From Thermoanaerobaculia bacterium (GTDB lineage Bacteria > Acidobacteriota > Thermoanaerobaculia > UBA5066), in the NCBI GenBank assembly GCA_963719225.1, contig CAVRAY010000001.1:736001-800000 (forward strand): a DNA stretch of 64,000 nucleotides, written 5' to 3'. Positions 28,931 through 51,600 of the stretch are shown in pieces. A program made the translations under genes and the position numbers. The notes under the pieces are model-generated. The model had not been told where the DNA came from and did no database searches. It saw nothing but the letters and a program-made list of their open reading frames with translations. Position 1 is the first letter of the stretch; each line of letters starts with the position of its first letter.

Positions 28931-30250
28931 GTGAAGCCCGATGTCGTCGTCGTGGGAGGGGGCGCGGCGGGCCTCCTCGCGGCGCTCGCGGCCGCCCGCG
29001 GCGGTCGCCGCGTCCTCGCGCTCGAAGCCGCGAAGGACGCGGGCCGGAAGATCCTCGTCTCCGGCGGCGGCCGCTGCAACGTCCTGCCGATGGAGGACGC
29101 GCCCCGTCGCTTCGTGTCCGAGTCGCCGAACCGCCTCGTGCGCCGCTTCCTGGAACGGTGGCCGCTTCCCGGCCAGCGTCTCTTCTTCGAGGAGCTCCTC
29201 GGCGGGGCGCTCCGCGAGGAGCCGGAGTCCCGGAAGCTCTTCCCGCCCTCGAACCGCGCGAAAGACGTGCGCGACGCGCTCCGTGACGCGTTGACGGCTG
29301 CGGGAGGGACGCTGCGCTCCGCGGCTCCCGTGCGCGGCGTCGCGCGGTCGGGTGACGGGTTCGCCGTGCGTCTCGACGGAGAAGAGATCGCCACCCCGCG
29401 CGTGATCCTCGCGACCGGCGGCCTCTCCGTCCTCGCGGGCGGCGCGGACGCGGCGGGTTACGGATGGGCCGCGGCGATGGGTCACACGGTCCGGCCGACG
29501 TACCCCGCGCTCGTGCCGCTCACGGGCGACGCGCCCGCGCATCACGCGCTCACGGGCGTCTCGTGCGGGGCGCGCGTCACCGCGCGGAGCGAGAAAGAAC
29601 GCGCCACGTCGAGCGGCGGCTTCCTCTTCACGCACAAGGGCTGGAGCGGCCCGGCGGTCCTCGACGTCTCGCATGTCGTCGCGCGCGCGGCGCTCGTCGG
29701 GAAGACGGCGGAAGTTCGGATTTGCTTCGGATTCGGAGAAGAAAGAAGAAGAGAAGAGGAAGAGAAGATTTCTGAGAATGGTCCCGTGCACAGCGCGGGC
29801 GGATCTCAGCCAGGCAACGCCGCCGCGCAGTGGGACGCTGCGCTTCGGGGCGCTGGGCGCCCAGGCGGCTCCGGGTCCCTCTCCCTCTTACCCTTTCTAA
29901 GAAAATCTTCTCTGCCTGACCGCCTTGCCAGCCTGATTCTCGATGTGGCACGGGTCCCGGACCAGAAGCTCTCTCTTCTTTCGCGCGAAGCGCGCGCGCG
30001 GGTCGTGGAAACGCTGACCGCGTTTCCCCTCCCCGCGACAGGGACCGAGGGCTACCGCACGGCGGAGGTGACGGGCGGGGGCGTCGCGCTCGAAGAGGTG
30101 GATCCGGGCAGCGGGAAGAGCCGGCTCGTGCCCGGCCTCTTTCTCGCCGGCGAGATCCTCGATGCCTTCGGTCCGATCGGCGGTTTCAATTTCCAATGGG
30201 CCTGGGCGACCGGCCGGACCGCGGGCAAGGCCGCGGCGCGTCTGACCTAG
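28931..30250 (+). CDS. HI0933/BaiN-family flavoprotein with an in-frame insertion
   Basis: GGGAAG, GRKILVSGGGRCN, LATGG, FTHKG.SGP, VTGGGV, GGFNFQWA; extra low-complexity segment at about 29730-29815. Confidence 0.9.
   Translation: MKPDVVVVGGGAAGLLAALAAARGGRRVLALEAAKDAGRKILVSGGGRCNVLPMEDAPRRFVSESPNRLVRRFLERWPLPGQRLFFEELLGGALREEPESRKLFPPSNRAKDVRDALRDALTAAGGTLRSAAPVRGVARSGDGFAVRLDGEEIATPRVILATGGLSVLAGGADAAGYGWAAAMGHTVRPTYPALVPLTGDAPAHHALTGVSCGARVTARSEKERATSSGGFLFTHKGWSGPAVLDVSHVVARAALVGKTAEVRICFGFGEERRREEEEKISENGPVHSAGGSQPGNAAAQWDAALRGAGRPGGSGSLSLLPFLRKSSLPDRLASLILDVARVPDQKLSLLSREARARVVETLTAFPLPATGTEGYRTAEVTGGGVALEEVDPGSGKSRLVPGLFLAGEILDAFGPIGGFNFQWAWATGRTAGKAAARLT
29761..29913. repeat. Inverted pair of the dispersed AT-rich motif inside a CDS
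   Basis: AGAGAAGATTTCTGAGAATGGT (29761-29782) versus ACCCTTTCTAAGAAAATCTTCTCT (29890-29913). Confidence 0.65.
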
Positions 30251-31579
30251 CAGGCTGCTGAAAAAGGGCTCCTGAAAATCGCGGCGAGGCATTGACTGCT
30301 GCGCGATGCGGCTGCACCTTGGTGTGCATGCGTGGAGACAACGAAAAGCAGGTCGATCTTGTCGTGACGATGACGCCCGAGGAGCTCGTGCCGCGGGACC
30401 ACCCGATCCGCAAGGTGAAGGCGCTTGCAGACGAAGCGCTCAGGCGTCTCGAGCCCAAGCTCGCCAGGCTGTACTCGGAGCGAGGGCGTCCATCGATTCC
30501 GCCCGAGATGCTTCTCAAGGCGCAGATCCTCATCGCGCTGTACAGCGTGAGAAGCGAGCGGCTCTTCTGCGAGCGGCTCGGGTACGACTTTCTCTTCCGC
30601 TGGTTCCTGGACATGCCGGGGCTTGCACCGGCCTTCGATCCGACGACCTTCTCGAAGAACCGCCAGAGACTGTTGGAGGCCGAGGTCTTCGAGGAGTTCT
30701 TCTCGGAAGTCGTCGCACAGGCCCGCAAGAAGTTTCTTCTCTCGGACGAGCACTTCACCGTGGACGGCACGCTGATCGAAGCGAACGCCTCCTTGAAGAG
30801 CTTCCAGCCCCGGAAGGACAAGGACGGTAAGGGCGGCGATGAGCCGCCAGCTCCTGGCGGCCGCAACGCCGATGTCGACTTTCGCGGCCAGAAGAGGCGC
30901 AACGACACGCACGCCTCGACGACCGATCCCGACGCCAAGCTCTACAAGAAGGGAGACGGCCAGCCTTCGCAGCTGTGCTACCTCGGCCACGTCTTGATGG
31001 AGAACAGAAACGGACTGTGCGTGAAGGCGCGCGTAACGACGGCCGACGGCTACGGGGAGAGGTCGGCCGCACTGGGCATGGTCGACGAGCTGGGCTCGGA
31101 CAAGCGCATCACGCTGGCCGGCGACAAGGGCTACGACACGAGGGATTTCATCGAAAGGCTCCGAGAGAGAGGCGTCACGCCCCACGTGGCCCAGAACACC
31201 ACCAACAGGCGCAGCGCCATCGACCGAAGGACGACGAGACACGCGGGCTACGCCGTGAGCCAGCGAATCAGGAAGCGCGTCGAAGAAATCTTCGGCTGGA
31301 GTAAGACCATCGGAGGCCTGGCCAAGACGCGCTTCCGAGGACTCGCCCGCGTGGCGGCTCACGTCCTCAGCGTGATGACGGCCTACAACCTCGTCCGAAT
31401 GGCGCGAATGGAGTCCTCGACCGCCTGATTCCCCCTGAAGCGCCCCTCGGTGCGACCGAAGCGGGCCGAAAAAGGCGAGCAGCACGGACTCACTCTCTCG
31501 AAGCAATCCCCTCTTTCAGCTTGACGTGTCTTCTCCCGCTCAAGCTCCTTTGAAAAAGAGCCCTTTCTTCAGCAGCCTG
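30251..31579 (+). mobile_element. Complete IS5-family insertion sequence, 1329 bp
   Basis: Terminal inverted repeats CAGGCTGCTGAAAAAGGGCTC / GAGCCCTTTCTTCAGCAGCCTG; CTAG duplication at 30247-30250 and 31580-31583. Confidence 0.93.
30328..31428 (+). CDS. IS5-family DDE transposase
   Basis: GRPSIPPE, VDGTLIEA, STTDPDA, GDKGYD, RKRVEEIFGW. Confidence 0.95.
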   Translation: MRGDNEKQVDLVVTMTPEELVPRDHPIRKVKALADEALRRLEPKLARLYSERGRPSIPPEMLLKAQILIALYSVRSERLFCERLGYDFLFRWFLDMPGLAPAFDPTTFSKNRQRLLEAEVFEEFFSEVVAQARKKFLLSDEHFTVDGTLIEANASLKSFQPRKDKDGKGGDEPPAPGGRNADVDFRGQKRRNDTHASTTDPDAKLYKKGDGQPSQLCYLGHVLMENRNGLCVKARVTTADGYGERSAALGMVDELGSDKRITLAGDKGYDTRDFIERLRERGVTPHVAQNTTNRRSAIDRRTTRHAGYAVSQRIRKRVEEIFGWSKTIGGLAKTRFRGLARVAAHVLSVMTAYNLVRMARMESSTA

Positions 31580-32254
31580 CTAGATCTTCGCGCCGTCCCA
31601 CCAGCTCGAGAGATGCGCCGTGGGCGTTCCCGGGGCGCCGCTCGCGTAATGGGACACGTCGTTGAAGAGCGTCAGCCGCGCGTGCGAAGGGTCCTTGAAG
31701 TCCAGAACGTTCAGACACGCCGGGCTCTGATCGAGGCGGTCGCGGTAGAAGCGCGGATCGAAGCCGACGAGCGCCGAGACGAGCAGGCGAATCGTGGCCT
31801 TGTGCGAGACCACGAGGAACGGGCGGCCCGCGTTTTCCTCGACGAGAGAGGCGAGGGCGGGAAGCGCCCGCGCGGTGACGGCGAGCCCGGTCTCGCCGCC
31901 TGCCGGCGCGAACGTGTAGGGGTCCGACTCCCAGCGGGCGTATTCCTCGGGCCAGAGCGCCTCGACCTCCCGGCGCGTCTTCGCCTCCCAGCGTCCATGG
32001 GAGATTTCCCGAAGCGCCGGGACGGGGACGACGGGCAGCCCGTGCGGCCCGGCGAGGATCTCGGCGCTCTCCAGGGTGCGGCGCATCGGGCTCGCGTAGA
32101 CGGCGCAGAGCGGCTCGTGGGCGAGGCGGTCGGCGAGATCGCGGAGCTGCGAACGCCCCGTATCCGAGAGGTCCACGTCCGTTTCGCCGGCGAAGCGGTC
32201 CTCCGCCGTGAGCGTCGTCGCGCCGTGCCGGACGAGATAGACGCGCGTCGGCAT
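31580..32254 (-). CDS. Histidine phosphatase family protein
   Basis: LVRHG, SPMRRT, LREISHGRWE, VSH. Confidence 0.9.
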   Translation of the reverse strand: MPTRVYLVRHGATTLTAEDRFAGETDVDLSDTGRSQLRDLADRLAHEPLCAVYASPMRRTLESAEILAGPHGLPVVPVPALREISHGRWEAKTRREVEALWPEEYARWESDPYTFAPAGGETGLAVTARALPALASLVEENAGRPFLVVSHKATIRLLVSALVGFDPRFYRDRLDQSPACLNVLDFKDPSHARLTLFNDVSHYASGAPGTPTAHLSSWWDGAKI

Positions 32255-32259
32255 TCGGG

Positions 32260-32610
32260 TCAGCCTTTCACGAGGAAATTTCGTTCGGAGAGGATTCTTC
32301 GAAGGCTGTCGCGGTGGTCGCCCTGGAGCTCGATGAGGGCGTCACTGATCGTCCCACCGGTGCCGAGCTGCTTCTTCAGCTCCTTTCCCAAACCCTCTAA
32401 GAAATCTGAATTCCTCGGAAGTCCGTCGAGAACCGTCACGATCTTCCCGCCTCGCCCTTTCTTCTCGATTCGCAGCTTGACGACCACCTTCGAAGGAACC
32501 TTCTCTTCGACCTTAGAAGAGCACTTGCAGTCGTTCGCCGGCCAGCCGCACGTCGCGCAGACGGAGCCGACCGCCGTGGAATAGACGAGCCGGACGGGAT
32601 CCTGCCTCAC
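32260..32610 (-). CDS. yciH: SUI1/YciH translation initiation factor family protein
   Basis: LVYST..CxxC..CxC, KKGRGGKIVT, KKQLGTGGT, IELQGDHRD. Confidence 0.88.
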   Translation of the reverse strand: MRQDPVRLVYSTAVGSVCATCGWPANDCKCSSKVEEKVPSKVVVKLRIEKKGRGGKIVTVLDGLPRNSDFLEGLGKELKKQLGTGGTISDALIELQGDHRDSLRRILSERNFLVKG

Positions 32611-32629
32611 GACCTCAGGATAATCCCCC
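32611..32629. promoter_or_regulatory. Overlapping divergent -10 elements (putative leaderless bidirectional promoter)
   Basis: GATAAT lies 5 nt before the arfB ATG (+); TATCCT lies 6 nt before the yciH GTG (-); no Shine-Dalgarno for arfB. Confidence 0.5.
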
Positions 32630-33061
32630 ATGGCCGATCCGATCCCGGTCGCCCCGGGTGTCACCATTCCGGAAGCCGCGCTCGAGGTGCGGCAGGTCAG
32701 GGCGTCGGGTCCGGGCGGGCAGAACGTGAACAAGGTGGCGTCGCGCGTGGAGCTGCTCGTCGACGTCGAACGCATCGAAGGTCTGGACGCCGCCGCGCGC
32801 GCTCGCCTTTACGTCCTGGCCGGGAGGAGGCGGGCCGCCGACGGGCGGCTGCGCCTCGTCGCCCAGGAAAGCCGCGACCGGCACCGGAACCTGGAAATCG
32901 TCCGCGAGCGAGCCCGGGACCTCGTCGGCCGGGCCCTTCAGGCTCCCGCCGCCCGGCGGCCCACCCGCCCCTCCCGCGGCGCGAGAGAGGCGAGGCTTCG
33001 GACGAAAGCGAAGGAGAGCCGCCTCAAAGCGGCCCGCCGCCCGGTCGGGACCGATGAATAA
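32630..33061 (+). CDS. arfB: Alternative ribosome rescue peptidyl-tRNA hydrolase
   Basis: RASGPGGQNVNKV; basic tail RRPTRPS...RLRTK. Confidence 0.92.
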   Translation: MADPIPVAPGVTIPEAALEVRQVRASGPGGQNVNKVASRVELLVDVERIEGLDAAARARLYVLAGRRRAADGRLRLVAQESRDRHRNLEIVRERARDLVGRALQAPAARRPTRPSRGAREARLRTKAKESRLKAARRPVGTDE

Positions 33062-33156
33062 CCGAATAGCGCATCTGAACTACTGCAAGTAGCGCATCCC
33101 GGGCCCATCGTTCACTCTGGCGGGCCGTGGCGGCCTCTGCCCAGGAGGATTCGACT

Positions 33157-34494
33157 ATGTCATCCAATGCACCGCGGCAGTCTGTGACCGTCACCGACAA
33201 CCGCACCGGAAAAACGATCGAGGTCCCGATCCAGAACGGGACGATCAAGGCGCTCGACCTTCGGGTCCTGAAGACGTCCCCGGACGACTTCGGCCTGATG
33301 ACCTACGACCCCGCGTTCATGAACACGGCGTCTTGCAAGAGCAAGATCACGTTCATCGACGGGGACAAGGGCATCCTGGAATACCGGGGATACCCGATCG
33401 CTGAGCTCGCCGAGAACACGACGTATCTCGAGACCGCGTATCTCGTCCTCAACGGGGAGCTGCCGACCAAGCAGCAGCACACGGACTGGGTGAAAGACGT
33501 CACCTTCCACACGATGGTCCACGAGGACATCAAGGACTTGATGGCGGCCTTCCGGTACGACGCGCACCCCATGGGAGTGCTCGCCTCCACGGTCGCGGCG
33601 CTGTCCACGTTCTATCCGGAAGCGAAGGACGTTCACTCGCCCGAGACCCGGAGGCAGCAGATCGTGCGCCTGGTCGCGAAGATGCCGACGCTGGCCGCGT
33701 TTGCCTACCGCCACTCGATCGGCTTCCCCTATGCGTATCCGGACAACGACCTGTCGTACACCGGCAACTTCCTGCAGATGATGTACCGCGCGGCCGAGCC
33801 GAAGTACCGGCCGAATCCCGTCCTCGAGCGGGCTTTGGAAGTCCTCTTCATCCTGCATGCCGACCACGAGCAGAACTGCTCGACGAACGCGATGCGCGCG
33901 ATCGGCTCCTCGGAGGCCGACCCGTATTGCTCGGCAGCCGGCGCGATCTCGGCCCTCTACGGCCCGCTGCACGGCGGGGCGAACGAGGCCGTCCTCCGCA
34001 TGCTGTTCGAGATCGGCTCGAAGGCGAACATCCCGGCGTTCATCAAGTCCGTCAAGGAGAGCGGCGGCGAGACGCGCCTCATGGGCTTCGGCCACCGCGT
34101 CTACAAGAACTACGACCCGCGCGCGAAGGTCATCAAGAACATGGCCGAGAAGGTCTTCGAGGTCACGGGCCGCAACCCGCTCCTCGACATCGCCCTCGAG
34201 CTCGAGCGCATCGCGCTCCAGGACGAGTACTTCCTGAAACGCAAGCTCTACCCGAACGTGGACTTCTATTCGGGCCTCATCTACCAGGCCATGAAGTTCC
34301 CCGTCGAGATGTTCCCGGTGCTCTTCGCGATTCCGCGCATGTCCGGCTGGCTCGCCCAGTGGAACGAGATGATCGAGGACAAGGAGCAGAAGATCGCCCG
34401 GCCGCGTCAGGTCTTCCTCGGCGCTCGGGAGCGTCACTTCACCCCGTTCGAGAAGAGGGAAGTCAAGACGGAGGGCGTGCTCACGACGGTGTAA
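33157..34494 (+). CDS. gltA: Citrate synthase
   Basis: [43 protein letters not shown]; RBS AGGAGG. Confidence 0.97.
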
Positions 34495-34897
34495 TCGGCA
34501 AACGCGTGATCGGGGTCGGCTGCCTCTTCTCGTCCACGTTCACGTAGACGACCTCGGCCTCGGTCACCTTCACGGTCTCGTCCGTCTTCCGCCAGCGCTC
34601 GGCGGTGACGAGGACCTTGATGGTGATCGAGGTTCGGCCGATGCGGGCGACGGTCGTGTAGAAGCTCACGACGTCGCCCACGAAGACGGGGGCGTGGAAG
34701 ACGACCTCGTTCATCTTCACGGTGAGGACGCGGTCGCAGTGCGCCCGCGTCGCGATCGCCCCGGCCTGGTCGATGTAGGCGAGGAGCACTCCGCCGAAGA
34801 TCGTGCCCTGGCCGTTCGTGTCGCGCGGGAACATCGACACGCGGATCGCGGGCTGGAGACCCGGGGACGAGGATTGAGCGCCGGTCTCGGAGTTCAT
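34481..34897 (-). CDS. Acyl-CoA thioesterase (hotdog, YciA-like)
   Basis: [11 protein letters not shown]...D, GRTSI. Confidence 0.9.
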
Positions 34898-34928
34898 GGC
34901 GGGATTATGGCGGGCTAAGATCCTTTTC

Positions 34929-37118
34929 ATGCCCGCCGCGAAAGCCGGCCTATTCCTCGGTCGTGCCGTCGATCCGGCTTCGGGCAGGACCGGCACGGAG
35001 CCTTTCCTCCTCGATCCCGCGGACCTCACGACCCACGGACTCATCGTCGGCATGACGGGGAGCGGCAAGACGGCTCTCGGCATCGTTCTCATCGAGGAGC
35101 TGCTTACCCGCGGCATTCCCGTTCTCGCGATCGATCCGAAAGGCGACCTCGGCAACCTCCTGCTCGACTTCCCGCGGCTCTCGGCCGAGGAGTTCGCGCC
35201 TTTCGTCGATCCGACCGCGGGCACGGCCGAGTCCGAGGCGAAGAAATGGATGGACGGCCTCGCGGGCTGGGGCCTCGGCCCGACGGACGTCCAGGTGCTC
35301 GTCGACAGCCGCGACGCGGTGATCTACACGCCCGGGTCCACGTCCGGAACGCCGGTCGATCTCTTCGGCTCCTGCACGCCCCCCCCGCGGGAGGCCGACG
35401 AGGAAGACCGCCGCGACGTCGTCACGGCCTTCGTGGGAGGGCTGCTGGGCCTCGCGGGCCGCGACGCGGATCCCGTGAAATCGCGCGACTTCATCTATCT
35501 CTCGCTTTGCGTGACGGGGCTCTGGGAGAAGGGCGAGACCGCGACGTTCGAGTCGCTCCTCGAGTTCGCGGCGGCGCCGCCGTTCGCGAAGGTGGGTGCG
35601 CTGCCGCTCGAGACGTTTTATCCCGCGAAGGAGCGGCAGGAGCTCGTCCTGGCGGTCAATTCCCTTCTCGCGTCGCCCGCGACGGCGGCGTTCCGCGAAG
35701 GGGAGCCGCTCGACGTCGGCAGGATGCTGGCGCCCACGCCGGCCGGAGGAAAGGCACGCCTTTCGATCGTCTCGATCGCGCATCTCGGCGACGCCGAGCG
35801 CGTCTTCGTCGTGGCGACGCTCCTCGCGCGCGTGAAGGCCTGGATGCGCTCGCTGCCGGGCAGCCCCGCCCTGAGAGCGCTCGTCTACGTCGACGAGATC
35901 TTCGGGTTCTTCCCGCCCTCGGCCGAGCCCCCCACGAAGAGGCCGCTCCTCACGCTCCTCAAGCAGGCGCGCGCGTTCGGCGTGGGAGTCGTCCTCGCCT
36001 CGCAGAATCCCGTCGACCTCGACTACCGCGGTCTCGCGAACTGCGGCTGCTGGTGGGTGGGCACGCTCCAGACGGAGCGGGACAAGCTGCGTCTCTCCGA
36101 GGGCCTCGTGGAAGCGGGCGGCAAGGACGCCTCGGCGCTTCTGACGAAAACGCGAAAGCGCGTGTTTCTCCTGAACGACGTGCACCGCAAGGAGCCGGCG
36201 CTGATCGAGACGCGCTGGGCGATGAGCTATCTCCGCGGGCCGATGACCAAGGCCGACCTCGCGAGGCTGAAGAGCGGAAGCGCCGTGCCGCCGCCGCCGC
36301 GAAAAGCGCCCGCGGGCCCTTCGGCACCCGCCCTTCCTTCGGCCTGGCCGGCGCGATGGCTCGAGAAGAGAAATGCCGACATCGCCTCTCCGGCGCTCTT
36401 CGTGAAATATGCCGTGCGCTTCCGCTCGGGGACGTCGTCCGCGCCGGAAACCACCGCGGCGAAGCTCTTCCCCCTGAACGCGGGATCTCCCGCGGAGGTG
36501 CTGGAGGGCGAAACCCTCGACCTCGGGCCCGCCGGCCTGGAGTCGCTGAAGGCCGCGGCGCCCGCCCGGCCGCTCAGCTACGCCGATCTGCCCGCGTGGC
36601 TCGGCGAGGGCACGGTGAAGACCGTCGAGAAGGCGGTGCGCTCGCGCCTTCCGGACAAGCTCGCGACGACGCTCTGGAGAGACCCCGTCACGGGGGCGCT
36701 CTCCGCTTCCGGCGAATCGCCGGAAGACTTCGCGAAGCGCCTCGCGGCGGGCGCCGAAGCGCCGGCCGCGCTACGCGAGAAGCTCGAGAAGAAACGCCGC
36801 GATCTCGCTGCGGCCGAGGCCGTCGAGCAGGGCAGATCGATGGAAACGTACGCCTCGATCGGCACGGCCGCCCTCGACGTCCTCGGCGGTTTGCTCGGGA
36901 AGCGGAAGTCGCTGCGCGTGGGAAGAGTCGGCTCGGTCCTGACGAAGCGCAGGATGGAAGGAACGGCCGAATCGAAAGTCGAAGGGCTGAGAGCCGAGAT
37001 CGCCGCGCTGGAGGCGAAGGTCGCTCCGCCGGACACGAGCCGCTTCGAGAAGGTGAACGTCGTCCCGGCCGCGGCGCACGTCGACGTGCTGTCGATCGGA
37101 ATTGCCTGGATTTGTTGA
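34929..37118 (+). CDS. HerA/FtsK-like P-loop ATPase
   Basis: Walker [15 protein letters not shown], Walker [16 protein letters not shown]...SQNP. Confidence 0.88.
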
Positions 37119-37129
37119 GAGGAGAGTAA

Positions 37130-37501
37130 GTGCCGAAGATTTCTCCGCGGAAGGAAGTCACCGAGCACCCGCTCTATCGCGCGGCCATGGCCGCGCAGCA
37201 CATCGCCTATCAGCTCATGCGCGAGGTGCCGCCCGAGCACAAGGCCGCCGCGACGCGTCTGCACGCGTCGCTCGTCCACGCGACGACGTACGCGGCGTAC
37301 GCGGTCGACCCCGACGTGACCGACAAGGAGGCGCAGTGGGCGGGCCTCGCCTCGACCGCCGCACGCGCGAAGGAGCAGCTCGAGCCGCTCGCCCAGTTCG
37401 CGGGCGACGCGCGCGACGTGGAGAAGCTGGGCGAAAGAATCGCCGAGCTGTCTCAAGCCGCGGAAAAAGGGGTCACTCCTCTTTCTTCGTCCCCAAGATG
37501 A
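37130..37501 (+). CDS. Hypothetical helical protein, divergent four-helix-bundle-like
   Basis: RBS GAGGAG with GTG start; N-terminal pattern shared with 40365-40730. Confidence 0.65.
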   Translation: MPKISPRKEVTEHPLYRAAMAAQHIAYQLMREVPPEHKAAATRLHASLVHATTYAAYAVDPDVTDKEAQWAGLASTAARAKEQLEPLAQFAGDARDVEKLGERIAELSQAAEKGVTPLSSSPR

Positions 37502-37814
37502 CGAGCACGATCAGGAGCAGGAGCACGATCAGCCCGATGACGATCGTCGTCGTGCGCGAAGAGCCGGCCGGAGGCTCGGGCGCCGCCGTGCCGGTCCTGG
37601 CGACCTCCGCTTTCGTGGGGGCCGGCTTCGGAGCTTCGGCCGTCGCGGGAGCCGGAACCGCGGTCGACGGAGCGCCCGTCGAGGCCGTGGAGGACGTCGT
37701 CGACGTTTCGGCCGGTTTCGTCGGGGCGGGACCGGCGGTCGACTGTGACAGCGCGGCGGAGGAGGCGAGGGCGAACGCCAGGAGGAGGGCGGTCATCGGG
37801 AAGCGTGGCTTCAT
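37473..37814 (-). CDS. Hypothetical exported, C-terminally anchored Ser/Thr/Pro/Ala-rich protein
   Basis: Signal peptide, low-complexity middle, C-terminal TM helix then KKEE. Confidence 0.7.
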   Translation of the reverse strand: MKPRFPMTALLLAFALASSAALSQSTAGPAPTKPAETSTTSSTASTGAPSTAVPAPATAEAPKPAPTKAEVARTGTAAPEPPAGSSRTTTIVIGLIVLLLLIVLVILGTKKEE

Positions 37815-37868
37815 GACGGGTGAAACTATCGGGCGGAGCCGAAGGCGTCAAGCGGCCGGGGCTCACGG

Positions 37869-40399: not shown

Positions 40400-40730
40400 G
40401 CTGGACCAGCTCGGCCCTGAGAGCGGAAAGATCGTTCAGGAGGCTTTCGCGGTCGCCCTCGGGAATCCCGGCGAGGGCCGGCTCGGAGGTCAGGAGGCTG
40501 GCGACCTCCGCCAGCTTCGTCTCGGCGAGTCCGAGCGCCTCTTCCACGTCGCTCCCCGGAAGGTCGAGAAAAGCCTCGCCGACGAGCGACGGGACCGATA
40601 CGGCGGCCTTCCGGAGCCGGGTGCCGGCTTCGGTGCCCTTCGCCCCGGAGGCCTCGACGGCAGCGTAAATCGTGTGAGCAAAACTCATTCCGCGCTTCCA
40701 GGTCGGGAGGTTCTTGTAGCCGCTCACCAT
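40365..40730 (-). CDS. Four-helix-bundle (23S rRNA IVP-like) protein
   Basis: [11 protein letters not shown]...IY...[11 protein letters not shown]...E. Confidence 0.7.
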
Positions 40731-40830
40731 ATCCATCCTAGTACGTTTGCATGGTCGTATGCGTCGCAATGCCGGTGCTAGGCTTCGTCGTTGGGCACGT
40801 CCGACCGACGTGCAGGGAAGGAGCGAAGTC

Positions 40831-41757: not shown

Positions 41758-41792
41758 TCACGCCGGAGAACTGAAGGAGGAGACTCGATCGC

Positions 41793-42461: not shown

Positions 42462-44374
42462 TCGAACTGAAGTCGAACGTCCCCGACGGGCCTCTCGAGA
42501 AGAAGTGGGACAAGCACCGTTTCGAGATGAAGCTCGTCAATCCGGCGAACAAGCGCAAGTACTCGGTCATCGTCGTCGGCTCCGGCCTCGCCGGCGGCGC
42601 GGGAGCCGCCTCCCTCGCCGAGCTCGGATACAACGTCTCGTGCTTCTGCTACCAGGACAGTCCGCGCCGCGCTCACTCGATCGCGGCGCAGGGCGGCATC
42701 AACGCCTCGAAGAACTACCAGAACGACGGCGACAGCGTCCAGCGCCTCTTTTACGACACGATCAAGGGCGGGGACTTCCGCGCCCGCGAGGCGAACGTCT
42801 ACCGGCTCGCGGAAGTCTCGTCGAACATCATCGACCAGTGCGTCGCGCAGGGAGTGCCGTTCGGACGCGAGTACGGCGGCACGCTGGGGAACCGCTCGTT
42901 CGGCGGGGCGCAGGTGTCGCGCACGTTCTATTCGCGCGGCCAGACGGGTCAGCAGCTCCTCCTCGGCGCCTACCAGGCCCTCGAGCGTCAGATCGGCCTC
43001 GGCAACGTGAAGATGCATTCGCGCCACGAGATGCTCGAGGTCGTCCTCGTCGACGGCCGCGCGCGCGGCATCGTGACCCGCGACATGATCACGGGCAAGG
43101 TCGAGTCGCACGCCGCCGACGCCGTCGTCCTCGCGACGGGCGGCTACGCGAACGTCTTCTATCTCTCCACGAACGCGGCGGGCTGCAACACGACCGCGAT
43201 CTGGCGCGCGTACAAGAAGGGCGCGGCCTTCGCGAATCCCTGCTACACGCAGATCCATCCGACCTGCATCCCCGTGACGGGCGACCACCAGAGCAAGCTC
43301 ACGCTCATGTCGGAGTCGCTACGCAACGACGGCCGAATCTGGGTGCCCCTGAAGAAGGGCGACAAGCGCGCCGCCGGCGACATCCCGGAGGCCGAGCGCG
43401 ACTACTACCTCGAGCGCAAGTACCCCTCGTACGGCAACCTCGCGCCGCGCGACATCGCGTCCCGCGCCGCCAAGCAGGTGTGCGACGAGGGGCGCGGCGT
43501 GGGCGAGACCGGCCTCGGCGTCTACCTCGACTTCGCGGACTCCATCAAGCGTCTCGGCGAAGGCACGATCCGCGAGCGCTACGGGAACCTGTTCGACATG
43601 TACGAGCGCATCACCGACGAGAACCCGTACAAGGTTCCGATGCGCATCTTCCCCGCCGCCCACTACGTGATGGGCGGCCTCTGGGTGGACTACAACCTCA
43701 TGTCCACGGTCCCGGGCCTCCACGTCGCGGGCGAGGCGAACTTCTCGGACCACGGGGCGAACCGCCTCGGGGCGAGCGCCCTCATGCAGGGCCTCGCGGA
43801 CGGTTACTTCGTCCTTCCGTACACGATCGGCAACTACCTCGCCACGACGAAGCAGGCGAAGGTCGACACGTCGCATGCCGCCTTCAAGGAGGCCGAGAGC
43901 GCCGTGGCCGCGCGCGTCGCGCGTCTCCTCTCCGTGAAGGGGAAGCGCACGGTGGACTCCTTCCACAAGGAGCTCGGCAAGATCATGTGGGAGTACTGCG
44001 GCATGGGCCGCAACCGCGAGGGCCTGAAGACGGCCCTCCAGAAGATCCCCGTGCTGCGCGAGGAGTTCTGGAAGAACCTCACGGTCGTGGGCGGGAAAGA
44101 CGAGATCAACCAGACTCTGGAGAGAGCGGGACGCGTGGCGGACTTCCTCGAGCTGGGGGAGCTCATGTGCCTCGACGCGCTCGAGCGCGAGGAATCCTGC
44201 GGCGGCCACTTCCGCGAGGAGTACCAGACTCCGGACGGCGAGGCGCTGCGCAACGACGAAAAATTCTGCCACGTCGCGGCCTGGGAATACGCTGGGGAGG
44301 GCAAGGCGCCGATCCGCAACGTCGAGCCGCTCGCCTTCGAGAACGTCCACCTGACGCAGAGGAGCTACAAATGA
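42458..44374 (+). CDS. sdhA: Succinate dehydrogenase/fumarate reductase flavoprotein
   Basis: [27 protein letters not shown]. Confidence 0.96.
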
Positions 44375-45147
44375 AGCTCACCCTGAACGTCTGGCGGCAG
44401 AAGAACTCGAAGTCCGAAGGCAAATTCGTCACGTACGACGCACCGGACATCAGCCCGGACATGTCCTTCCTCGAGATGCTCGACGTCGTGAACCGGCGCC
44501 TCGTTGAAAAGGGCGAGGATCCGATCGCCTTCGACCACGACTGCCGCGAAGGCATCTGTGGCATGTGCGGCATCGTCGTGAACGGCAATCCGCACGGGCC
44601 GCGCCGCGGCACGACGAGCTGCCAGCTCCACATGCGCACCTTCAAGGACGGCGACGTCATCACGCTCGAGCCCTGGCGCGTCACGCCGTTCCCGGTCCTG
44701 AAGGACCTCATCGTCGACCGCTCGTCCTTCGACCGCATCGTCGCGGCCGGAGGGTTCATCACGCTCCCGACCGGCAACGCCCCGGACGGCAACGCGATCC
44801 TCGTTCCGAAGGACTGCGCCGAGCGCTCGATGGACGCGGCCCAGTGCATCGGCTGCGGCGCCTGCGCCGCAGCGTGCCCGAACGGCTCGGCGATGCTCTT
44901 CGTGGCGGCGAAGGTTTCGCACCTCGCGCTGTTGCCGCAGGGCCAGCCCGAGCGTTACGACCGCGTGCTCACGATGGTCCAGCAGATGGACGCGGAAGGC
45001 TTCGGCACGTGCACGAACCACGGCGAGTGCTCGCGTGCGTGTCCGAAGGAGATCCGCCAGGAGTTCATCGCGCAGCTCAACCGCGACTTCTTCAAGGCGA
45101 CGCTCATCACGCGCCCGAAGGCCGCCGGAGGCGCCGGGGCCGGCTAG
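44371..45147 (+). CDS. sdhB: Succinate dehydrogenase iron-sulfur subunit
   Basis: [25 protein letters not shown]...CP; ATGA overlap. Confidence 0.96.
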
Positions 45148-45221
45148 ACGATCGGATCGAGTCGTGTGAGAGAACCCGAAAGCCGCTCGCAACCTGCTTT
45201 GGCGAAGCATCGGGTCGGGGC

Positions 45222-45307
45222 GATTTTCTTCGAAGGGTGAATGGGCCGATTGCATAGGGCCGAGGCTGAGCCGCGAGGCGCCTGCACATTCACCTTCTAA
45301 GAAAAAC
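45222..45307. repeat. Intergenic palindromic element (REP/MITE-like hairpin)
   Basis: Arms GATTTTCTTCGAAGGGTGAATG and CATTCACCTTCTAAGAAAAAC form an imperfect ~21-bp inverted repeat. Confidence 0.7.
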
Positions 45308-45315
45308 AGCCCGAC

Positions 45316-45423
45316 GTGAGCCCCACTGTAGGTCGTTGCGCTCCGCCGTTCACCTCCTACATCATTCACGCGCGGCCTCTGACGGAGAAGGAGAAGCGGA
45401 GATTCCGGAGGCGAAAACGATGA
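45316..45423 (+). pseudogene. C-terminal remnant of a BrnT/RelE-like toxin
   Basis: Reads YIIHARPLTEKEKRRFRRRKR*; its stop overlaps (ATGA) the downstream RHH gene. Confidence 0.6.
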
Positions 45424-45740
45424 AGAGAAAGCAGCATTCGGGTGTCGGATCCGCTGCGACGTCCCTCGCGGCGCTGAGAGCCGCAGCGAAGGATCTCGAA
45501 CGTGAGCTGGTCGCGGACGAGTTCCGCCCGATGGGGCCCGACGAGCGCGCCCGCTGGGAAAGGGCACGCCGGAAGCCGGGCCGTCCTATCCGAGGTGCCG
45601 GGGCGAAGGTCATCTCGGTGAGCGTGGAGCGAGGCCTTCTCGTTCGCTCGGACGCCCTCGCGCGGAACCTCGGAATCACCCGCGCATCGCTCGTCGAACG
45701 CGGCCTCAAGGCGGTTCTTGCCGCCGAGGGGCGGCTCTAA
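45420..45740 (+). CDS. Ribbon-helix-helix antitoxin-like protein
   Basis: KPGRP motif followed by the RHH pattern VISVSVERGLL..SDALA...GITRASLV. Confidence 0.75.
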   Translation: MKRKQHSGVGSAATSLAALRAAAKDLERELVADEFRPMGPDERARWERARRKPGRPIRGAGAKVISVSVERGLLVRSDALARNLGITRASLVERGLKAVLAAEGRL

Positions 45741-45760
45741 GTCAGCTTCCGAGCTAGCAA

Positions 45761-46453
45761 ATGGAGTCACGCCGAGCCGCGGTCCTTCTTTCGCTCCTCT
45801 TCGGCGTCGCCTTACGCGCGGACGAGCCGGGGAAGGCAATCGTTCCGCCGCCGCCCGCGCTCCGCGTCACGCTCCTCGGGACCGGCAACCCGCGGCCGTC
45901 GATGACGCGTTTCGGGCCGTCGATCCTCGTCGAGGCCGCGACGGTTCCGCCGACGCGCATCCTGGTGGACGTCGGGCGCGGCGCGACGCAGCGCCTCTTT
46001 GCGATCGGGGGACGGGACCTCCTCTCCGGAGTCGACCTCGTTCTCCTGACGCACCTTCATTCCGATCACGTCGTGGGCCTGCCGGACCTGTGGCTGACGG
46101 GCTGGATCTTCGGGCGGACCAAGCCGTTTTCCGTGAAGGGTCCGGAGGGGACGGCCGCTCTCATGGCGCACCTCGAGAAGGCCTTCGAGTTCGACGTGAA
46201 GACGCGACGGGACGTCGACGAGCGCCTGCCCGCGCCGGGAGCCGCGGTCGAGGCGAAGGACATTTCTCCCGAAGCGATCCTCGAGGTCTCGGGCGTCAAG
46301 ATCACGGTGTTCGCGGTGGATCACGGCCCGGTGAAGCCGGCGTACGGCTATCGCATCGATTACGCGGGAAAGACGGTCGTCCTCTCCGGCGACACGCGGT
46401 ACTCGGAGAACCTGATCGCGCACGCAAAGGGCTGCGACGTCCTCGTGGAGTAA
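45761..46453 (+). pseudogene. RNase Z/AtsA-like metallo-beta-lactamase, C-terminally truncated
   Basis: LLGTG, THLHSDH, VDH and SGDT are present; it stops at DVLVE* with no HE motif and no final His. Confidence 0.7.
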
Positions 46454-46547
46454 TTTTCCAGCGATCCTCCGCGCGCGCGTGACGCCGCTCACCCATTTGC
46501 AAGAAGAGCTTGCGCAATTCCGGTCCGTTTGTTGCAGCCGACCGGAC

Positions 46548-47468
46548 ATGAGTTACGAATCTCGAAAACAGAAAAAGACATCGCCCCTTCAAGCCACGGT
46601 ACTTTTTCTTCTGCTGGCGGGCGCGTCACGCCTCGCGGCCCAGACTCCGGCGCAGCAGATCGACTTCGACCGCCCCGAGGCGTGGGCCCTCAAGTACTTC
46701 GCGGCGGTCACGACGTTCACGCCGCTCCAGGCGCCCCGGGAACGGGCGCCCGGGACCATCGAGATCGCGCTTGAGGGAGGCTGGATCCCGTATCTCACCG
46801 ATACGGAGCGGACCGTCGGCTTCGAGGGGACGAAGGTGGAGGACCTCAACAAGGCGCCGCTCTACGGGCGGCCGCGCCTCCTCATCGGCCTGCCCGCCGG
46901 CTTCGCGGTCGAGGCGGGCTGGCTCCCGCCGATCCGCATCCACGGAACGCAGACGAACCTCTTCGACGCCGCGATCGAGAAGGCCTTCTTCGACAAGCCC
47001 GGCGGGAGCCTCGGGCTGCGGCTCTACGGGCAGATCGGGCACTCGTACGGCGACTACACGTGCCCCGCAGATGTGGTGCGCTCGCGGCCGGGCACGCCCG
47101 GGAACCCGTACGGCTGCGACGCGCGGTCGACGGACGTCGCGAATCTGAACTACACCGGCGCGGCGCTGACGGGCGGCATCAAGGTCGCGCCCGGCGTCGC
47201 AGTGCACCTCGCGGGCGGCGCGACGTACAACGACCTCCAGTTCCAGGTCGGCGCGTACTGGAACGGGACGGCCGACAACACACTCCTCACCACGCACGGC
47301 TGGACCGGCTGGGGCGCGGCTGGTTTCGACGTGGCTCTCGGAACCACCGCGTCGTTCTCCGCCGAGGCGTTCTACAGCCCGCTCACGGTCGTGCGGCCGC
47401 CCTCGACCTCGTCGCAGAATGACGGTCTCTTCAACGTGAGGGGCCTCGTCACCGTCCACCTCCGCTGA
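46548..47468 (+). CDS. Hypothetical exported protein, possible outer-membrane beta-barrel
   Basis: Signal-like N-terminus, alternating amphipathic strands, one Cys pair; start uncertain. Confidence 0.65.
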   Translation: MSYESRKQKKTSPLQATVLFLLLAGASRLAAQTPAQQIDFDRPEAWALKYFAAVTTFTPLQAPRERAPGTIEIALEGGWIPYLTDTERTVGFEGTKVEDLNKAPLYGRPRLLIGLPAGFAVEAGWLPPIRIHGTQTNLFDAAIEKAFFDKPGGSLGLRLYGQIGHSYGDYTCPADVVRSRPGTPGNPYGCDARSTDVANLNYTGAALTGGIKVAPGVAVHLAGGATYNDLQFQVGAYWNGTADNTLLTTHGWTGWGAAGFDVALGTTASFSAEAFYSPLTVVRPPSTSSQNDGLFNVRGLVTVHLR

Positions 47469-47477
47469 CCTTCGCGG

Positions 47478-48059
47478 TCAAGGATTCTTCGTCACGATCT
47501 CGAAGTCGATTTTGAGGTCGTCTTTCACATTCACCGTACCGCCTCCGGCCTTGATCGGCTTGATGCCGAAGGAACTCTGCTTGACCGTCGCCGAGCCGCG
47601 AAAGCGTTCCCTCGCGCCCGTGACCTCGAACTTGAGCGGCACTTTCTTCCCGCGCAGCTCCAGCTCTCCCTCGACCTGCCAGCGCCCTTCGGCGACCGGC
47701 TTGACGGCGGTGGACTTGAATCGGATCTCCGGGAACTTCGCGACGTCGAGGACCTCCGGTCCCAGCATCCTCTTCTGCACCTCGGCCCGCTTCTCTTTCG
47801 CAAGGTCCGGATCGAGCACCGTCATCTTTCGCGCGTCCACTTCGAGCTCCACCGCCGGCTTCTCTCCGTCGGATACGGATCCCGAGGCGACGGTCGCCCG
47901 AACCTCGTGGTTGTCGCCGAAAGCGGAGAAGAGGCCCGACTTGAAGACGTGCACGGTGAACGAGGACTTCTCGGCATCGATCGCCCATGTCTCGGCATGC
48001 GCGGATGCCGAGAGGAGCGCCGAGGCCACCAGCGCGCCTGGGACGAGTGTGCGTCTCAT
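47478..48059 (-). CDS. YceI family protein
   Basis: Signal peptide; LDVAKFPEIRFKS, GELELRG, FGIKP. Confidence 0.85.
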   Translation of the reverse strand: MRRTLVPGALVASALLSASAHAETWAIDAEKSSFTVHVFKSGLFSAFGDNHEVRATVASGSVSDGEKPAVELEVDARKMTVLDPDLAKEKRAEVQKRMLGPEVLDVAKFPEIRFKSTAVKPVAEGRWQVEGELELRGKKVPLKFEVTGARERFRGSATVKQSSFGIKPIKAGGGTVNVKDDLKIDFEIVTKNP

Positions 48060-48069
48060 GGGAGAACCT

Positions 48070-48097
48070 CCTTCATCTTTCCACCTTCATCTTTCCA
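48070..48097. repeat. 14-bp perfect tandem duplication
   Basis: CCTTCATCTTTCCA occurs twice, adjoining the RBS of the yceI-like gene. Confidence 0.85.
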
Positions 48098-48154
48098 CGG
48101 AAGCAAGCGGCGGGCCCGGGCGAATCGGGTCTCGTGTCCCGCTAAGATGTCGGC

Positions 48155-48622
48155 GTGCTCGTCCGCGCCCTCCTGTCCACCCTCCACCTCATCGCGCTTC
48201 CGCTGGGTTTCGCGAGCCTGTTCCTGCGCGGCATGCGGTTGCGCGAGCTCAGGATCGCGCGCGGTGACGCCGGGACGCGCGCGGCGCTTCTCTCCGCCGA
48301 CAACGTCTGGGGCCTCGCGGCTCTCCTCTGGATCGTGACGGGGCTCACGCGCGCGTTCTCGGGGCTCGAGAAGACGCCCGACTACTATCTGAGGAACGGA
48401 TTCTTCTGGGTGAAGATGTCGCTCTTCCTCGTCGTCTTCGTGCTCGAGATCCAGCCGATGGTCACGTTCATCCGCTGGCGCATCGCGAAGGACCGTGCGG
48501 CCGAGCTCGTCGGCAAGGCGCCGCTCGACAGGCTCATCACGCTGAACGACGTCGAGACGGCCCTCATCCTCGTCATCCCCTTCGCCGCCGCGCTCATGGC
48601 GCGCGGGGCGTGGATGTTCTGA
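48155..48622 (+). CDS. DUF2214-like membrane protein
   Basis: ADNVWGLAA, GLEK...Y, FWVKM, MARG. Confidence 0.8.
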   Translation: MLVRALLSTLHLIALPLGFASLFLRGMRLRELRIARGDAGTRAALLSADNVWGLAALLWIVTGLTRAFSGLEKTPDYYLRNGFFWVKMSLFLVVFVLEIQPMVTFIRWRIAKDRAAELVGKAPLDRLITLNDVETALILVIPFAAALMARGAWMF

Positions 48623-48640
48623 ACGCAGAAACTCCCGCTC

Positions 48641-51600
48641 CTACCTCACCGGCATCGCCGGCCGCTTCGGCTTCTGCGGCGGGTTCTTCTTCAGCTCCTC
48701 CATCACGATCGCGATCGCCTTCTCGAGCTGCGGGTCGTGGCCGGCGATGACGTCGGCGGGCATCTGCTCGACTTCGACGTCGGGCGGGACGCCGACGTTC
48801 TCGACGCCGAAGCCTTCCTCCGGCGTCCAGAAGCCGAGGTTCGGAGCGGTGACGACGGCGCCGTCCATGAGCGTCGGGAAGCCGAGGATGCCGACGAGGC
48901 CGCCCCACGTGCGCTGGCCCACGAGCGTCCCGACCTTGAAGTGCCTGAACATCCACGGCAGGAGATCGCCGCCGGAGCCGGCGGTCTCGTCGATGAGCAT
49001 GACCTTCGGACCCTGGATGGACGCGCTCGGCGTCTTGAGGTCGTCGCCGTAACGCATCGCCCACCACGCGATGGGCTGGCGTGTCAGCGCCTCGATGTAG
49101 TAATCGGCCACGCTGCCGCCGCCGTTGAAGCGCTCGTCCACGATGATCGCGTCGCGTGAGGCCTGGGGATAGAAGTACCGCTTGAAATACGTGTGGCCGA
49201 GCTCCGCCGTGTTCGGGACGTAGACGTACGCGACGCGTCCGCCCGTCGCGGCGTCGACCTTCCGCAGATTGCCCTCGACCCAGTCGCGGTTGCGGAGCGT
49301 CGCCTCGTCCGCCACGGGGACCACGCTGACCGTGCGCGAGAGCGTGCCGTCCGGCTTCGGCCCGACCGTGATCTCGATGATCTTTCCGGCCGTGCCCTCG
49401 AAACGCGCGTAGAGGTTCTCGGGCGGCGCGAGATCCTTGCCGTTCACCGCGAGGAGGTACTCGCCGGACCTGACCTCGACGCCCGGCTCGGAAAGCGGCG
49501 CGCGCAGCTCGGGGTTCCAGTTCAGGCCGCCGAAGACTTTCTTGAAGCGGTAGCGGCCGTTCGCGACTTCGTAGTCCGCGCCGAGCAAGCCTCCCTGTAC
49601 ATGAGCGATTTCCGCGAACGAGTCGCCCGGCGTGTTCCGGTGGTGGCCGACGGCGAGCTCGCTGCACATCCACTGGATGAGGCGGTTGAGGTCGGTCCGC
49701 GAGGACAGGTACGGGACGAAGGCGGCGTACTTCGCCTTCATGGCCTTCCAGTCGGCACCGTGCATCTTCGGGTCGTAGAAGTAATCCCGGTTGACGCGCC
49801 AGGCTTCGTCGAAGATCTCGGGCCATTCGTCCCGAGGGTCGACGCGCACGGCGATCGCGTCGAGCTTGAGCTTGCCGTCGGAGCCTTCCTTCGGCTTGCC
49901 GTCCGAGCCGTCCTTCGTGTCGGCCTTCTTCGGCGACGAGGAGACGAGCGACCACGACTCTTTTTGCGGAGCTCCCGGCGGCGCCTCTCTCGGCGCGGAC
50001 TCCTTGTCCTTCTGCCTGAAGAGGATCTTCTTCCCGTCGAAGGACACGAAGTAATCCTCGGCCTCGGGGACGACCGTCTCGGCCTTGCGCTCCTTGAAGT
50101 CGAAACGCTGGACGGACGTCTTGCCGTCCGCCTTGCGCTGGAAGAAGAGCTGGCCCGCGCTGCCGGCCTGGAGGTTCGAGATCTCGGCGGGGTGGACAGG
50201 CAGGTCGACGATGCGGACGTTGAAGCCGTCGCGGTCGATGACGACGGGCGCGGGCGGCTTACCCTTGGCACCTTTCGAAGAATCTTCTTTCTTCTCGTCG
50301 GTCTTTCCCTCTTTAGCCTCTTCGCCCTTCTCCTCGTCGCTCTCCTTCGCGAGAGGCGAGGGCGTGCCCCTCTTCAACGTCGCCACGTAGATCGCGTTCG
50401 TGATGCGCGCGTCGGTGTTCTGCAGGGAGAACCAGTTGCGCTGCGGGCCCGCGTCGGTGGACGCGAGGAAATAGAGGAGCCTCCCGGCCTTGTCGAAGGC
50501 GGGGTCCGACACGTCCGAGAGGCCGTCAGTGAGGGGATAGGACTTGCCCTCGTCGAGGGAGTAGACGTACGCCGTCCGGATGTACGTGGGCCCGGAGAGC
50601 GTGTAGGCGACCCAGCGCGAGTCCGGCGACCACGAGCCGCGTAGCATCCTGTAACGCGCGGGCGCGTAGAGTCGCTCGGTCGCGATCTTTTTCGAGGCTC
50701 CGCTCGCGACGTCGACGATGTGGAGCGTCAGGGAGTTGTCCGTCAGGACGATCTTCTTTCCGTCGGGCGAAAAGACGAGCTCGTCGTAGAAGCCCGCGCC
50801 CGGAACCTTGATCGTCTTCGGCGCCCCCTTGCCGTCCTGCGCCCTGACGACGATCTCGTTCTCGCCGCTCTCGTCCGAGACGTACGCGATCTCCTTGCCG
50901 TCCGGCGACCACGCGGGCGCGCGCTCGTGGAAGGCGGTCGTGCGCGTGAGGTTGCGCGCGTCGCCCTTCTCGGCGGGCACGGTCACGATCTCGCCCCGGA
51001 ACTCGAACGCGGCGCGCGCGCCGGAGGGGGAGAGCGCGGCCCCGCGGATCCACTTCGCGCCCTTCGCCCAGCGCGGGCGCGTCTCGAGGAGGTCGCCGGG
51101 AACCGTGATCGAAAGGTCGGTGACCTTCTTCGAGGCGGGGTCGAGGAGGTGAAGGGTGCCGGCCTGCTCGAAGACGATGCGCCCGGCGGCTCCGGAAGCG
51201 TTGAGGACGGGGAAATCCGTGTAGCGGGTGAGCCGGGAGAGAGAGAAGGATTTCTTGGAAGGACTAGCTGGGTCCGCCGTTTGATCGAGAACGTAGAGGT
51301 TGAACTCGCCGTCGCGATCCGAACGTAGGACGATGGTCGCTCCCCCGCCTCCGCCGGCTCCGTTCACCCATATCGGGTCCGCGTCGTTGCACCGCGTCGC
51401 GGGCTGCGGCACGTGCTGGATCGCGTGCGTCGCCACGTCGTAGAGCCATATCCTGGAAACCGTGCCGCCGCGGTAGCGCTTCCACTGCAGGTGACGGGGG
51501 CCGTTCGGGCTGTAGGCGATCGTTTTGCCGTCGGGGGAGTACGCGGCTCGGTCGGCGTACGGGATCGGCAGGGCCGTTTCGAGGCCGCCCTCGACGGGCA

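Follow-up and report, generated by a model that had tools for sequence, protein, structure and literature searches.

Why does one short AT-rich sequence occur both between genes and in frame inside unrelated genes of a GC-rich bacterium? The question is raised by a stretch of 64,000 nucleotides from a Thermoanaerobaculia genome (GenBank assembly GCA_963719225.1, contig CAVRAY010000001.1, positions 736,001 to 800,000 of the forward strand). It is called the window below, and positions within it are counted from its first letter. An initial annotation had described a dispersed motif of about 22 bp in the window and had offered two explanations for it, a mobile element of the REP (repetitive extragenic palindromic) or MITE (miniature inverted-repeat transposable element) type, or the binding site of a protein. 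The results obtained with the source genome (G000; assembly of 4.75 Mb, 68% GC) and its relatives go beyond this description, since the unit is a facing pair of sites, is restricted to one clade, and has arms that carry further boxes. Quite possibly, the pairs are polar binding sites that spread by a recombination drive similar to that of uptake sequences, a prediction that we favor tentatively and that is weighed below against three other explanations.

The motif is a signal in the DNA

The sites, termed A sites, were scored with a matrix of 23 columns that had been trained on the source genome itself. In this matrix, the core TTTCTT[A/C>T>G]GAA[G>A>T]G is strict. It is preceded on the 5′ (outer) side by a purine tract in loose register and followed on the 3′ (inner) side by a short run of purines. 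When the 12- to 16-mers of the genome were ranked, the AT-rich words of the motif came first after poly-A. With this source-trained matrix, 793 matches of at least 16 bits and 482 matches of at least 25 bits were found, versus 65 and 4, respectively, in an order-6 Markov genome. According to our own gene calls, 729 sites were divided into 245 sense, 240 antisense, and 244 intergenic sites.

The number of coding matches of at least 18 bits was 466, whereas only 18–22 were left after codon resampling with fixed amino acids and 41–47 after synonymous shuffling inside each gene. The enrichment over codon-preserving shuffles, the absence of which would have spoken against the initial annotation, was thus present, and the loss of the coding matches under the shuffles shows that the signal resides in the DNA. 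The coding DNA surrounding the sites, 0.6% of the total, contained 80 of the 268 TTA codons. A link between sites and a low codon score was mostly circular and became smaller after masking. Rfam covariance models gave no match at motif sites.

The sites form facing pairs

A facing partner at a distance of 40–320 bp was found for 478 of 600 strong sites, and a back-to-back partner for 20. Counted by neighbors, a plus-strand site was followed by a minus-strand site within 320 bp in 251 of 281 cases, and the reverse order within 300 bp occurred in 8 of 281. The spacing of the facing pairs has a floor at about 75 bp, a mode at 85–87 bp, and a tail up to 300 bp. The mode was found in other genomes as well, where 25 of 65 independent loci had a spacing of 85–87 bp, with a search pattern limited to 83–113 bp. 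The spacing showed no helical phasing (p = 0.23), and no motif arrays were found in the source genome.

The partners of a pair did not covary over the motif (z = −0.3) or the outer flank, and the pair interiors did not fold better than controls (z values of 0.16 and −0.44 vs. −0.20 and 0.16, 35 pairs each). Both results speak against hairpins or terminator stems. The sole unit that folded somewhat better than its shuffles (z = −2.1) is the copied unit at 45.2 kb of the window, which is described below. No inverted duplication of one arm onto the other was seen either, and the arms are not copies of one another (z = 0.4 and −0.3); the inner 20–40 bp of the partners aligned slightly better than those of shuffled partners (z = 3.4, in one window of the comparison). 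The interiors are diverse: 205 of 242 were unique, the biggest cluster comprised 15 kinase paralogues, and many interiors are conserved catalytic-domain sequence. A region at C1:2293328–2319756 of the source genome contains about nine tandem Ser/Thr kinase genes, each with a motif pair of 103 bp in the kinase N-lobe.

Distribution on the chromosome and among genomes

The initial annotation had suggested testing for replichore bias. No bias was found, as 351 sites are on the leading and 378 on the lagging strand, and single sites are similarly distributed (92/206). A polar motif of the KOPS (FtsK-orienting polar sequences) or Chi type, which would have a strand bias that flips between the replichores, is therefore not supported. 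The density of the sites did change along the chromosome. It rose about 2.5-fold with the distance from the origin, from 7–10 to about 23 sites per 100 kb (rho = 0.71, 45 windows), with the origin placed by dnaA, parS, and skew and the contig order assumed.

The motif is confined to one genus of the Thermoanaerobaculia and is thin in a second genus of the same family. The exact 11-mer occurred in 37–267 copies in each of the 26 congeners and in 1–31 copies in all 7 genomes of the second genus. The remaining 26 genomes of the family had no more than one copy each, and 91 genomes from other families had no more than two. A looser 11-mer gave 135–253 matches in the genus versus at most 20 elsewhere in the phylum (297 genomes). 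In the comparison tallies, genome G019 is counted as one outgroup row, and none of the conclusions depends on it. In the second genus, the motif is the same and likewise occurs as facing pairs, as seen in stretches that were selected around known matches; one genome of this genus is almost devoid of the motif, with one exact copy and three matrix matches in 140 kb. In a species-level collection, the pair pattern was found at 121 loci at least, and all listed loci are from Thermoanaerobaculia/Acidobacteriota assemblies. The pair pattern had no match in viral contigs, where a single 15-mer of the motif gave scattered matches. Sequencing runs, which were covered as contigs, contained no more than 23% of the words searched. 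DNA specific to the source genome in comparison to genome G003 was nearly free of the motif, with one site in 138.6 kb versus 20.3 expected, although some of these segments may be losses in G003.

Most coding sites are built in place, and sites turn over rapidly

The origin of coding sites was analyzed with 35 sites in 22 genes, which were compared with motif-free orthologues; a reference genome of the same family has no site in 400 kb. Six sites were outside of the alignments, and 29 were scored. Fourteen cores aligned without an indel within 12 residues, 5 aligned with an indel nearby, and 10 were inside insertions. Most coding sites were therefore built by substitution in place. The core residues were 27% identical to those of the motif-free orthologues, versus 59% for the entire genes. 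Conservation of the encoded peptides in distant orthologues, which had been named as a second argument against the initial annotation, was thus not observed.

Two genes illustrate the process. The gene for the translation factor SUI1 contains an A site of 24 bits at 32393..32404 (minus strand), which encodes DFLEG, and its Leu codon forms a stepwise series of CTC, CTG, TTG, and TTA across 16 genomes. The facing partner, an A site of 9 bits at 32293..32305 (plus strand), can be at either of two positions, as it is located about 15 bp further along in three congeners. The site was lost in G009, and the alleles of the congeners appeared mosaic by eye. On the outer side of the SUI1 site, at a distance of about 93 bp, a weak A site of 10 bits forms a direct repeat (32485..32499, minus strand). 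In the isoleucyl-tRNA synthetase (IleRS) gene, 24 genomes have sites at six to seven recurring positions, with outer poly-Ser tracts of 0–25 residues. The purine tracts vary from 0 to 75 nt, and lengthening occurs solely on the outer side.

The comparison of the source genome with G003 over 526 kb of aligned sequence yielded 49 common sites as well as 28 and 14 private sites, respectively. Indels of at least 30 bp were strongly concentrated at sites (17 of 49 vs. 1.2 expected). Within about 100 bp of the sites, gap openings were 8–17 times more frequent than in the background, and the synonymous divergence was 0.37–0.44 versus 0.30. The cores themselves were less diverged than their flanks (n = 33 cores). 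The sites are not hot spots of rearrangement, because only 3 of 144 ends of synteny blocks were within 200 bp of a site, versus 5.9% of gene ends.

Presence and absence of a whole unit was observed at the intergenic junction at 37118..37130 of the window. Among 11 genomes, 4 have a full pair there, 1 has a half unit, and 6, including the source genome, have none. The pairs have retained a spacing of 86–90 bp while their interiors have diverged. The junction is located between a gene for a HerA-like ATPase and an open reading frame of 123 residues without a Pfam match (34896–37501), and several congeners have the motif pair at this position.

Additional boxes and a copied unit

Two further boxes were found outside of the A sites. 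The B box consists of a purine tract followed by TT[C/T]TGCT[C/T]C and is on the same strand as A, with a peak 62–72 bp outside of it. It was present in 63 of 792 arms versus 6 in a control window. Conversely, 25 of 37 strict B boxes of the source genome have a same-strand A site 45–110 bp downstream, versus 0.2 expected, and the same is true for 6 of 9 strict B boxes of G003. A B box on one arm predicts a B box on the opposite arm (odds ratio 8.4), although the spacers are unrelated. B boxes were not found in 200 kb of G008 or in 400 kb of the second genus. The C box (CGACCTACAGTGGGGC) is located 28–29 nt outside of A. It was found in 23 of 29 genomes of the genus with 1–8 copies each, in about eight unrelated gene contexts, whereas a reversed control gave none. 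An arm consensus of about 85 nt, in the order B-C-A, is found in about eight unrelated loci, and among 215 matches between the outer flanks of unrelated sites, 135 are in register.

One pair has been copied together with its surroundings. The unit at 45175..45345 (minus strand) of the window consists of a C arm, A, an interior, A′, and a second arm. It includes the A sites at 45224..45237 (plus strand, 31 bits) and 45293..45306 (minus strand, 34 bits), which form an intergenic pair. The C box is at 45320..45335 (minus strand), in the register that is kept at unrelated loci, and a second type of arm, CCTGCT...GCATCGG, is found at 45193..45213 (plus strand) outside of the plus-strand A site. Over 173 bp, this window pair matches the pair at C1:3757422–3757594 of the source genome with 80% identity (E = 3.5e-39). 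The latter locus is intergenic and common to six congeners, and 3 of 7 genomes have a C box there. In the window, the copied unit is part of an insert of about 600 bp that is missing in G003, G006, and G007. The occurrence of a unit of 173 bp at two loci with 80% identity indicates that patches centered on a pair are occasionally copied. Target duplications were not seen by eye at filled and empty sites, including the copied unit, and the events are old. The remnant of a two-gene module, which we take to be toxin-antitoxin-like, is fused to the copied unit at 45346–45740; it is longer in G016, and the intact open reading frame of 106 residues has no Pfam match. The inserts found at the site after sdhB differ between congeners.

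The remaining sites of the window

All nine main copies of the initial annotation were recovered at their coordinates and on their strands. Its three inverted pairs are real, all of them face inward, and the distances from first T to first T are 135, 110, and 79 bp. The peptides that it had quoted were located in an HI0933 flavoprotein, SUI1, and a tricorn protease. Of the two weaker matches, the one at 17257 is marginal (10 bits, minus strand), and the one at 26237 is not a copy (below 0 bits on both strands).

In the HI0933 gene, the left arm has a B box (TTTGCTTCGGA) at 29721..29731 as an outer secondary site. An outer purine tract at 29737..29768 follows, which encodes EERRREEEEK and has a variable length among congeners, and then a degenerate A site of 12 bits at 29769..29781 (all plus strand). 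Compared with other families, the protein has about 25 additional residues in this stretch. The right site of the pair (29892..29905, minus strand, 34 bits) encodes FLRK and is followed by a poly-Ser tract that is also variable in length among congeners. The tricorn protease gene contains two single A sites. One of 15 bits in a linker (50271..50283, minus strand) is shared with G003 and G008, and the other, of 17 bits (51251..51262, plus strand), is in an in-frame stretch of 48 bp that is missing in G003 and G008.

Search for a reader protein

Ten protein families were tested as candidates for the protein that reads the motif, and none was found to be the reader. The initial annotation had suggested a search for a transposase of the RAYT (REP-associated tyrosine transposase) type. 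No Y1/RAYT gene was found in the source genome, and Y1 genes were found in 4 of 26 congeners and in all 17 genomes of a motif-free genus. Reverse transcriptases occur in 4 of 29 genomes of the genus. IS110-type enzymes and the large terminase were each present in 2 of 5 genomes, and IS110 was not found in G003 and G013. Topoisomerase IB was found in 1 of 19 genomes of the genus (0 of 18 congeners) versus 9 of 12 outgroups, and tyrosine recombinases are present in all 5 genomes without tracking the motif. Ku is present in all 26 congeners. It was not found in the second genus (0 of 7 genomes), and it occurs in 7 of 26 motif-free relatives. A ParB paralogue was rejected, as both ParB genes are found in a motif-free genus and the helix-turn-helix of the paralogue is nearly identical there. 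No histone fold was found, and the search for the receptor pilin ComP gave no match, with control genomes equally silent. Among genes of the source genome that are missing from a syntenic motif-free relative (400 kb), no convincing DNA-binding candidate was found.

Two of these searches led to observations of their own. The reverse transcriptase of the source genome is of the group II intron type and is encoded at a contig end (C2:800000–871796, L013) with a lower GC content and no motif sites; this part of the assembly appears to stem from a different organism. A second ParA-ParB pair is encoded near the terminus (C1:2037865–2039524, L421), and the ParB is present in all 5 genomes of the family that were tested. 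One parS site was found in the source genome, an ordinary one at the origin.

What are the pairs for?

The reader of a DNA signal that overwrites proteins by the hundreds, a translation factor and an aminoacyl-tRNA synthetase among them, must exert strong selection or drive. The second alternative of the initial annotation, a binding site, is supported by the conserved core, the graded synonymous variants, the preferred spacing of the pairs, and the boxes at fixed offsets. The conserved polar core, the pairing rule with its preferred distance, and the outer contacts at fixed offsets together suggest a symmetric protein complex. The pairs would likely be gripped by a putative, lineage-specific protein machine with a requirement for two sites at least about 86 bp apart, and this machine would likely favor such DNA when related cells exchange genes. 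A complex with two-fold symmetry would bind A and A′ and could make further outer contacts at B. Fragments bearing a pair would be taken up, protected, or integrated more often, and because such fragments would be favored, mutations toward the consensus would spread at each locus despite the cost for the protein, an argument that has also been made for uptake sequences. On rare occasions, pairing that involves just the boxes would deposit patches of about 150–200 bp at new places.

Spread by biased recombination fits well with the costly build-up of sites inside genes, their near-absence from new DNA, the fast turnover, the mosaic alleles, and the copied patches. It is also in agreement with the strand neutrality of the signal, the pairing rule, and the lineage restriction. 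Individual sites are dispensable, as the private sites of the source genome and G003 and the absence of the junction pair from 6 of 11 genomes show. Recombination is in play, because the nearest relative switches along the IleRS gene and the SUI1 alleles are mosaic, and the copied unit and the orthologous locus at which 3 of 7 genomes have a C box point in the same direction. The gene for ComEC is present.

Several results weigh against this explanation. Natural competence is putative, and the ten families yielded no reader. Haplotype blocks in IleRS were not clearly more common near the sites (linkage ratios of 0.96–1.84 vs. 0.84–1.96 far from sites). According to PMC2397512, uptake sequences work singly, and the pair rule is therefore without precedent. 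With one site per about 6 kb, the sites are sparser than uptake sequences, and the increase in density away from the origin is explained as easily by chromosome architecture. With more reserve, we consider it possible that the pairs belong to a new DNA machine, in which a two-fold complex on up to four polar sites (B-65bp-A, at least 86 bp, A′-65bp-B′) would cover about 220 bp, shield this patch, and feed recombination. Such a system would drive itself into genes, grow low-complexity linkers, and sometimes carry patches along, and would amount to a selfish or self-recognition code of facing pairs.

A role in chromosome architecture or maintenance under ordinary host selection, in which a lineage-specific protein wraps, bridges, or is loaded as a ring between facing sites, e.g., to organize the origin-distal chromosome, is the strongest rival, but we regard it as rather doubtful. 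The spacing with its sharp lower edge and its mode, the symmetric four-site layout with correlated B boxes despite unrelated spacers, the gradient toward the terminus, the cores kept while flanks drift, and the retained spacing of 86–90 bp at the intergenic junction would all be expected. Architecture does not readily explain why two thirds of the sites cost amino acid changes and why poly-Ser and poly-Glu tracts arise in essential genes despite free intergenic space. In addition, helical phasing is missing, one genome of the second genus nearly lacks the motif, no histone fold was found, and the helix-turn-helix of the terminus-linked ParB paralogue is almost unchanged in a motif-free genus.

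It is unlikely that the pairs mark the termini of a small selfish element, similar to a MITE, a REPIN (a REP doublet), or a neisserial intergenic mosaic element (NIME), with arms of about 90 bp and with most copies old and decayed. Such an element would account for the copied unit and the common arms, i.e., the unit of 173 bp at two unrelated loci and the arm consensus with flanks in register, and the presence or absence of whole units, the indels at sites, and the 10 of 29 coding sites in insertions would also be expected. It would not account for substitution in place, as the motif occupies residues that were already present in 19 of the 29 coding cores. Moreover, the interiors are mostly unique and often conserved catalytic-domain sequence, no near-identical family exists apart from the kinase paralogues, neither target duplication nor hairpin covariation was seen, and the distributions of Y1 and IS110 do not match. 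The first alternative of the initial annotation is therefore mostly unsupported, except that units are sometimes lost or copied. Function-less scars, left by an enzyme that would add the motif together with purine filler where DNA is broken or forks have stalled (via reverse transcriptase, end joining, or template switching), are very improbable, because the outward purine tracts, the excess of gaps and synonymous changes, the Ku genes of all congeners, and the slight similarity of the inner 20–40 bp are outweighed by the rarity of reverse transcriptases, the absence of Ku from the second motif-bearing genus and its presence in motif-free relatives, partner arms that are not copies of one another, and the stepwise synonymous variants of cores that diverge less than their flanks.

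Comparison with known systems

Like the DNA uptake sequences (DUS) of Neisseriaceae and the uptake signal sequences (USS) of Pasteurellaceae, as described in PMC2817400 and PMC2397512, the motif is short and lineage-specific, has hundreds of copies of which about two thirds are genic, falls on poorly conserved residues, and is lacking in recently acquired DNA. DUS act singly, and the inverted pairs of DUS are close terminator stems (21 nt or less; PMC2397512). In contrast, 80% of the strong sites described here face a partner 75–300 bp away, without covariation of a stem and with extra boxes in the arms. An over-representation of inverted doublets relative to singlets is shared with REP/REPIN sequences (PMC3116915). 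REPINs are extragenic, form hairpins, and are linked to RAYTs, whereas here 485 of 729 sites are in genes, the interiors do not fold, and Y1 is missing from most carriers.

The NIMEs (PMC1797815) are short repeats around diverse interiors of about 50–150 bp, have been proposed as recombinase sites, and show a raised local variation, all of which resembles the pairs. They differ in being intergenic arrays of palindromic 20-mers that a phage recombinase targets, whereas the pairs are polar, dispersed, and located in genes, do not form arrays, are rarely near synteny ends (3 of 144), and are accompanied by IS110-type enzymes only patchily. Rickettsia palindromic elements (RPE) of about 105–146 bp, which are fused in frame, also lead to repeat-related peptides in unrelated proteins (PMC3184786). 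The RPE are conserved inserted cassettes, whereas most coding cores described here replace residues and have unrelated interiors. The lack of a common interior, with the exception of the one copied pair, and the 19 of 29 cores that were not inserted speak against membership in a MITE or RPE family.

The parS/ParB, NBS (Noc-binding site)/Noc, and matS/MatP systems use tens of palindromic single sites, and the two-site loading of helicases in archaea and yeast is limited to a few origins. The motif resembles the nucleoid site families in having sequence-specific coding and non-coding sites with a chromosomal gradient, and, as in helicase loading, its sites are asymmetric and inverted, with spacings that have a lower limit and a long tail. 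It differs from both by hundreds of polar pairs with GC-rich interiors. A parS or NBS family, defined by a 16-bp palindrome and a matching ParB, is not supported, as the motif is polar and no lineage-specific ParB was found. To our knowledge, few genome-shaping motifs have been described (uptake sequences, Chi, KOPS, HIP1), and we know of none in which facing sites are paired at a preferred distance and accompanied by outer boxes.

No description of the motif was found in the open-access literature, including a search for the exact 11-mer together with 'Acidobacteria'; most subscription journals and supplements were outside of its coverage. The facing pairs with their secondary boxes are therefore apparently an undescribed, genus-wide DNA signal system outside of every family tested, a novelty that is based on the failed membership tests and on the open-access literature, not on a mechanism. 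The motif, its spacing, and the nearly empty relatives of the same family offer a direct route to the reader, and the case would test recombination drive as a genome shaper outside of the Neisseriaceae and Pasteurellaceae.

Further features of the genome and the window

A separate repeat family of 15 copies in the source genome, which starts with CTAACGATATCAAGCTCAGC, presumably resembles the attC sites of integrons. At 30251–31580, the window contains an insertion sequence of the DDE family that is flanked by CTAG and has no tie to motif sites. Its nine copies in the source genome are 99.9–100% identical, which shows that it was recently active. At the left end of the window, a molybdopterin subunit similar to formate dehydrogenase is encoded on the minus strand (3–668). 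Its gene has an in-frame TGA at residue 179, which is immediately followed by a match to the Rfam family SECIS_3 (79–137, minus strand), and judging from these two features, the protein is likely a selenoprotein.

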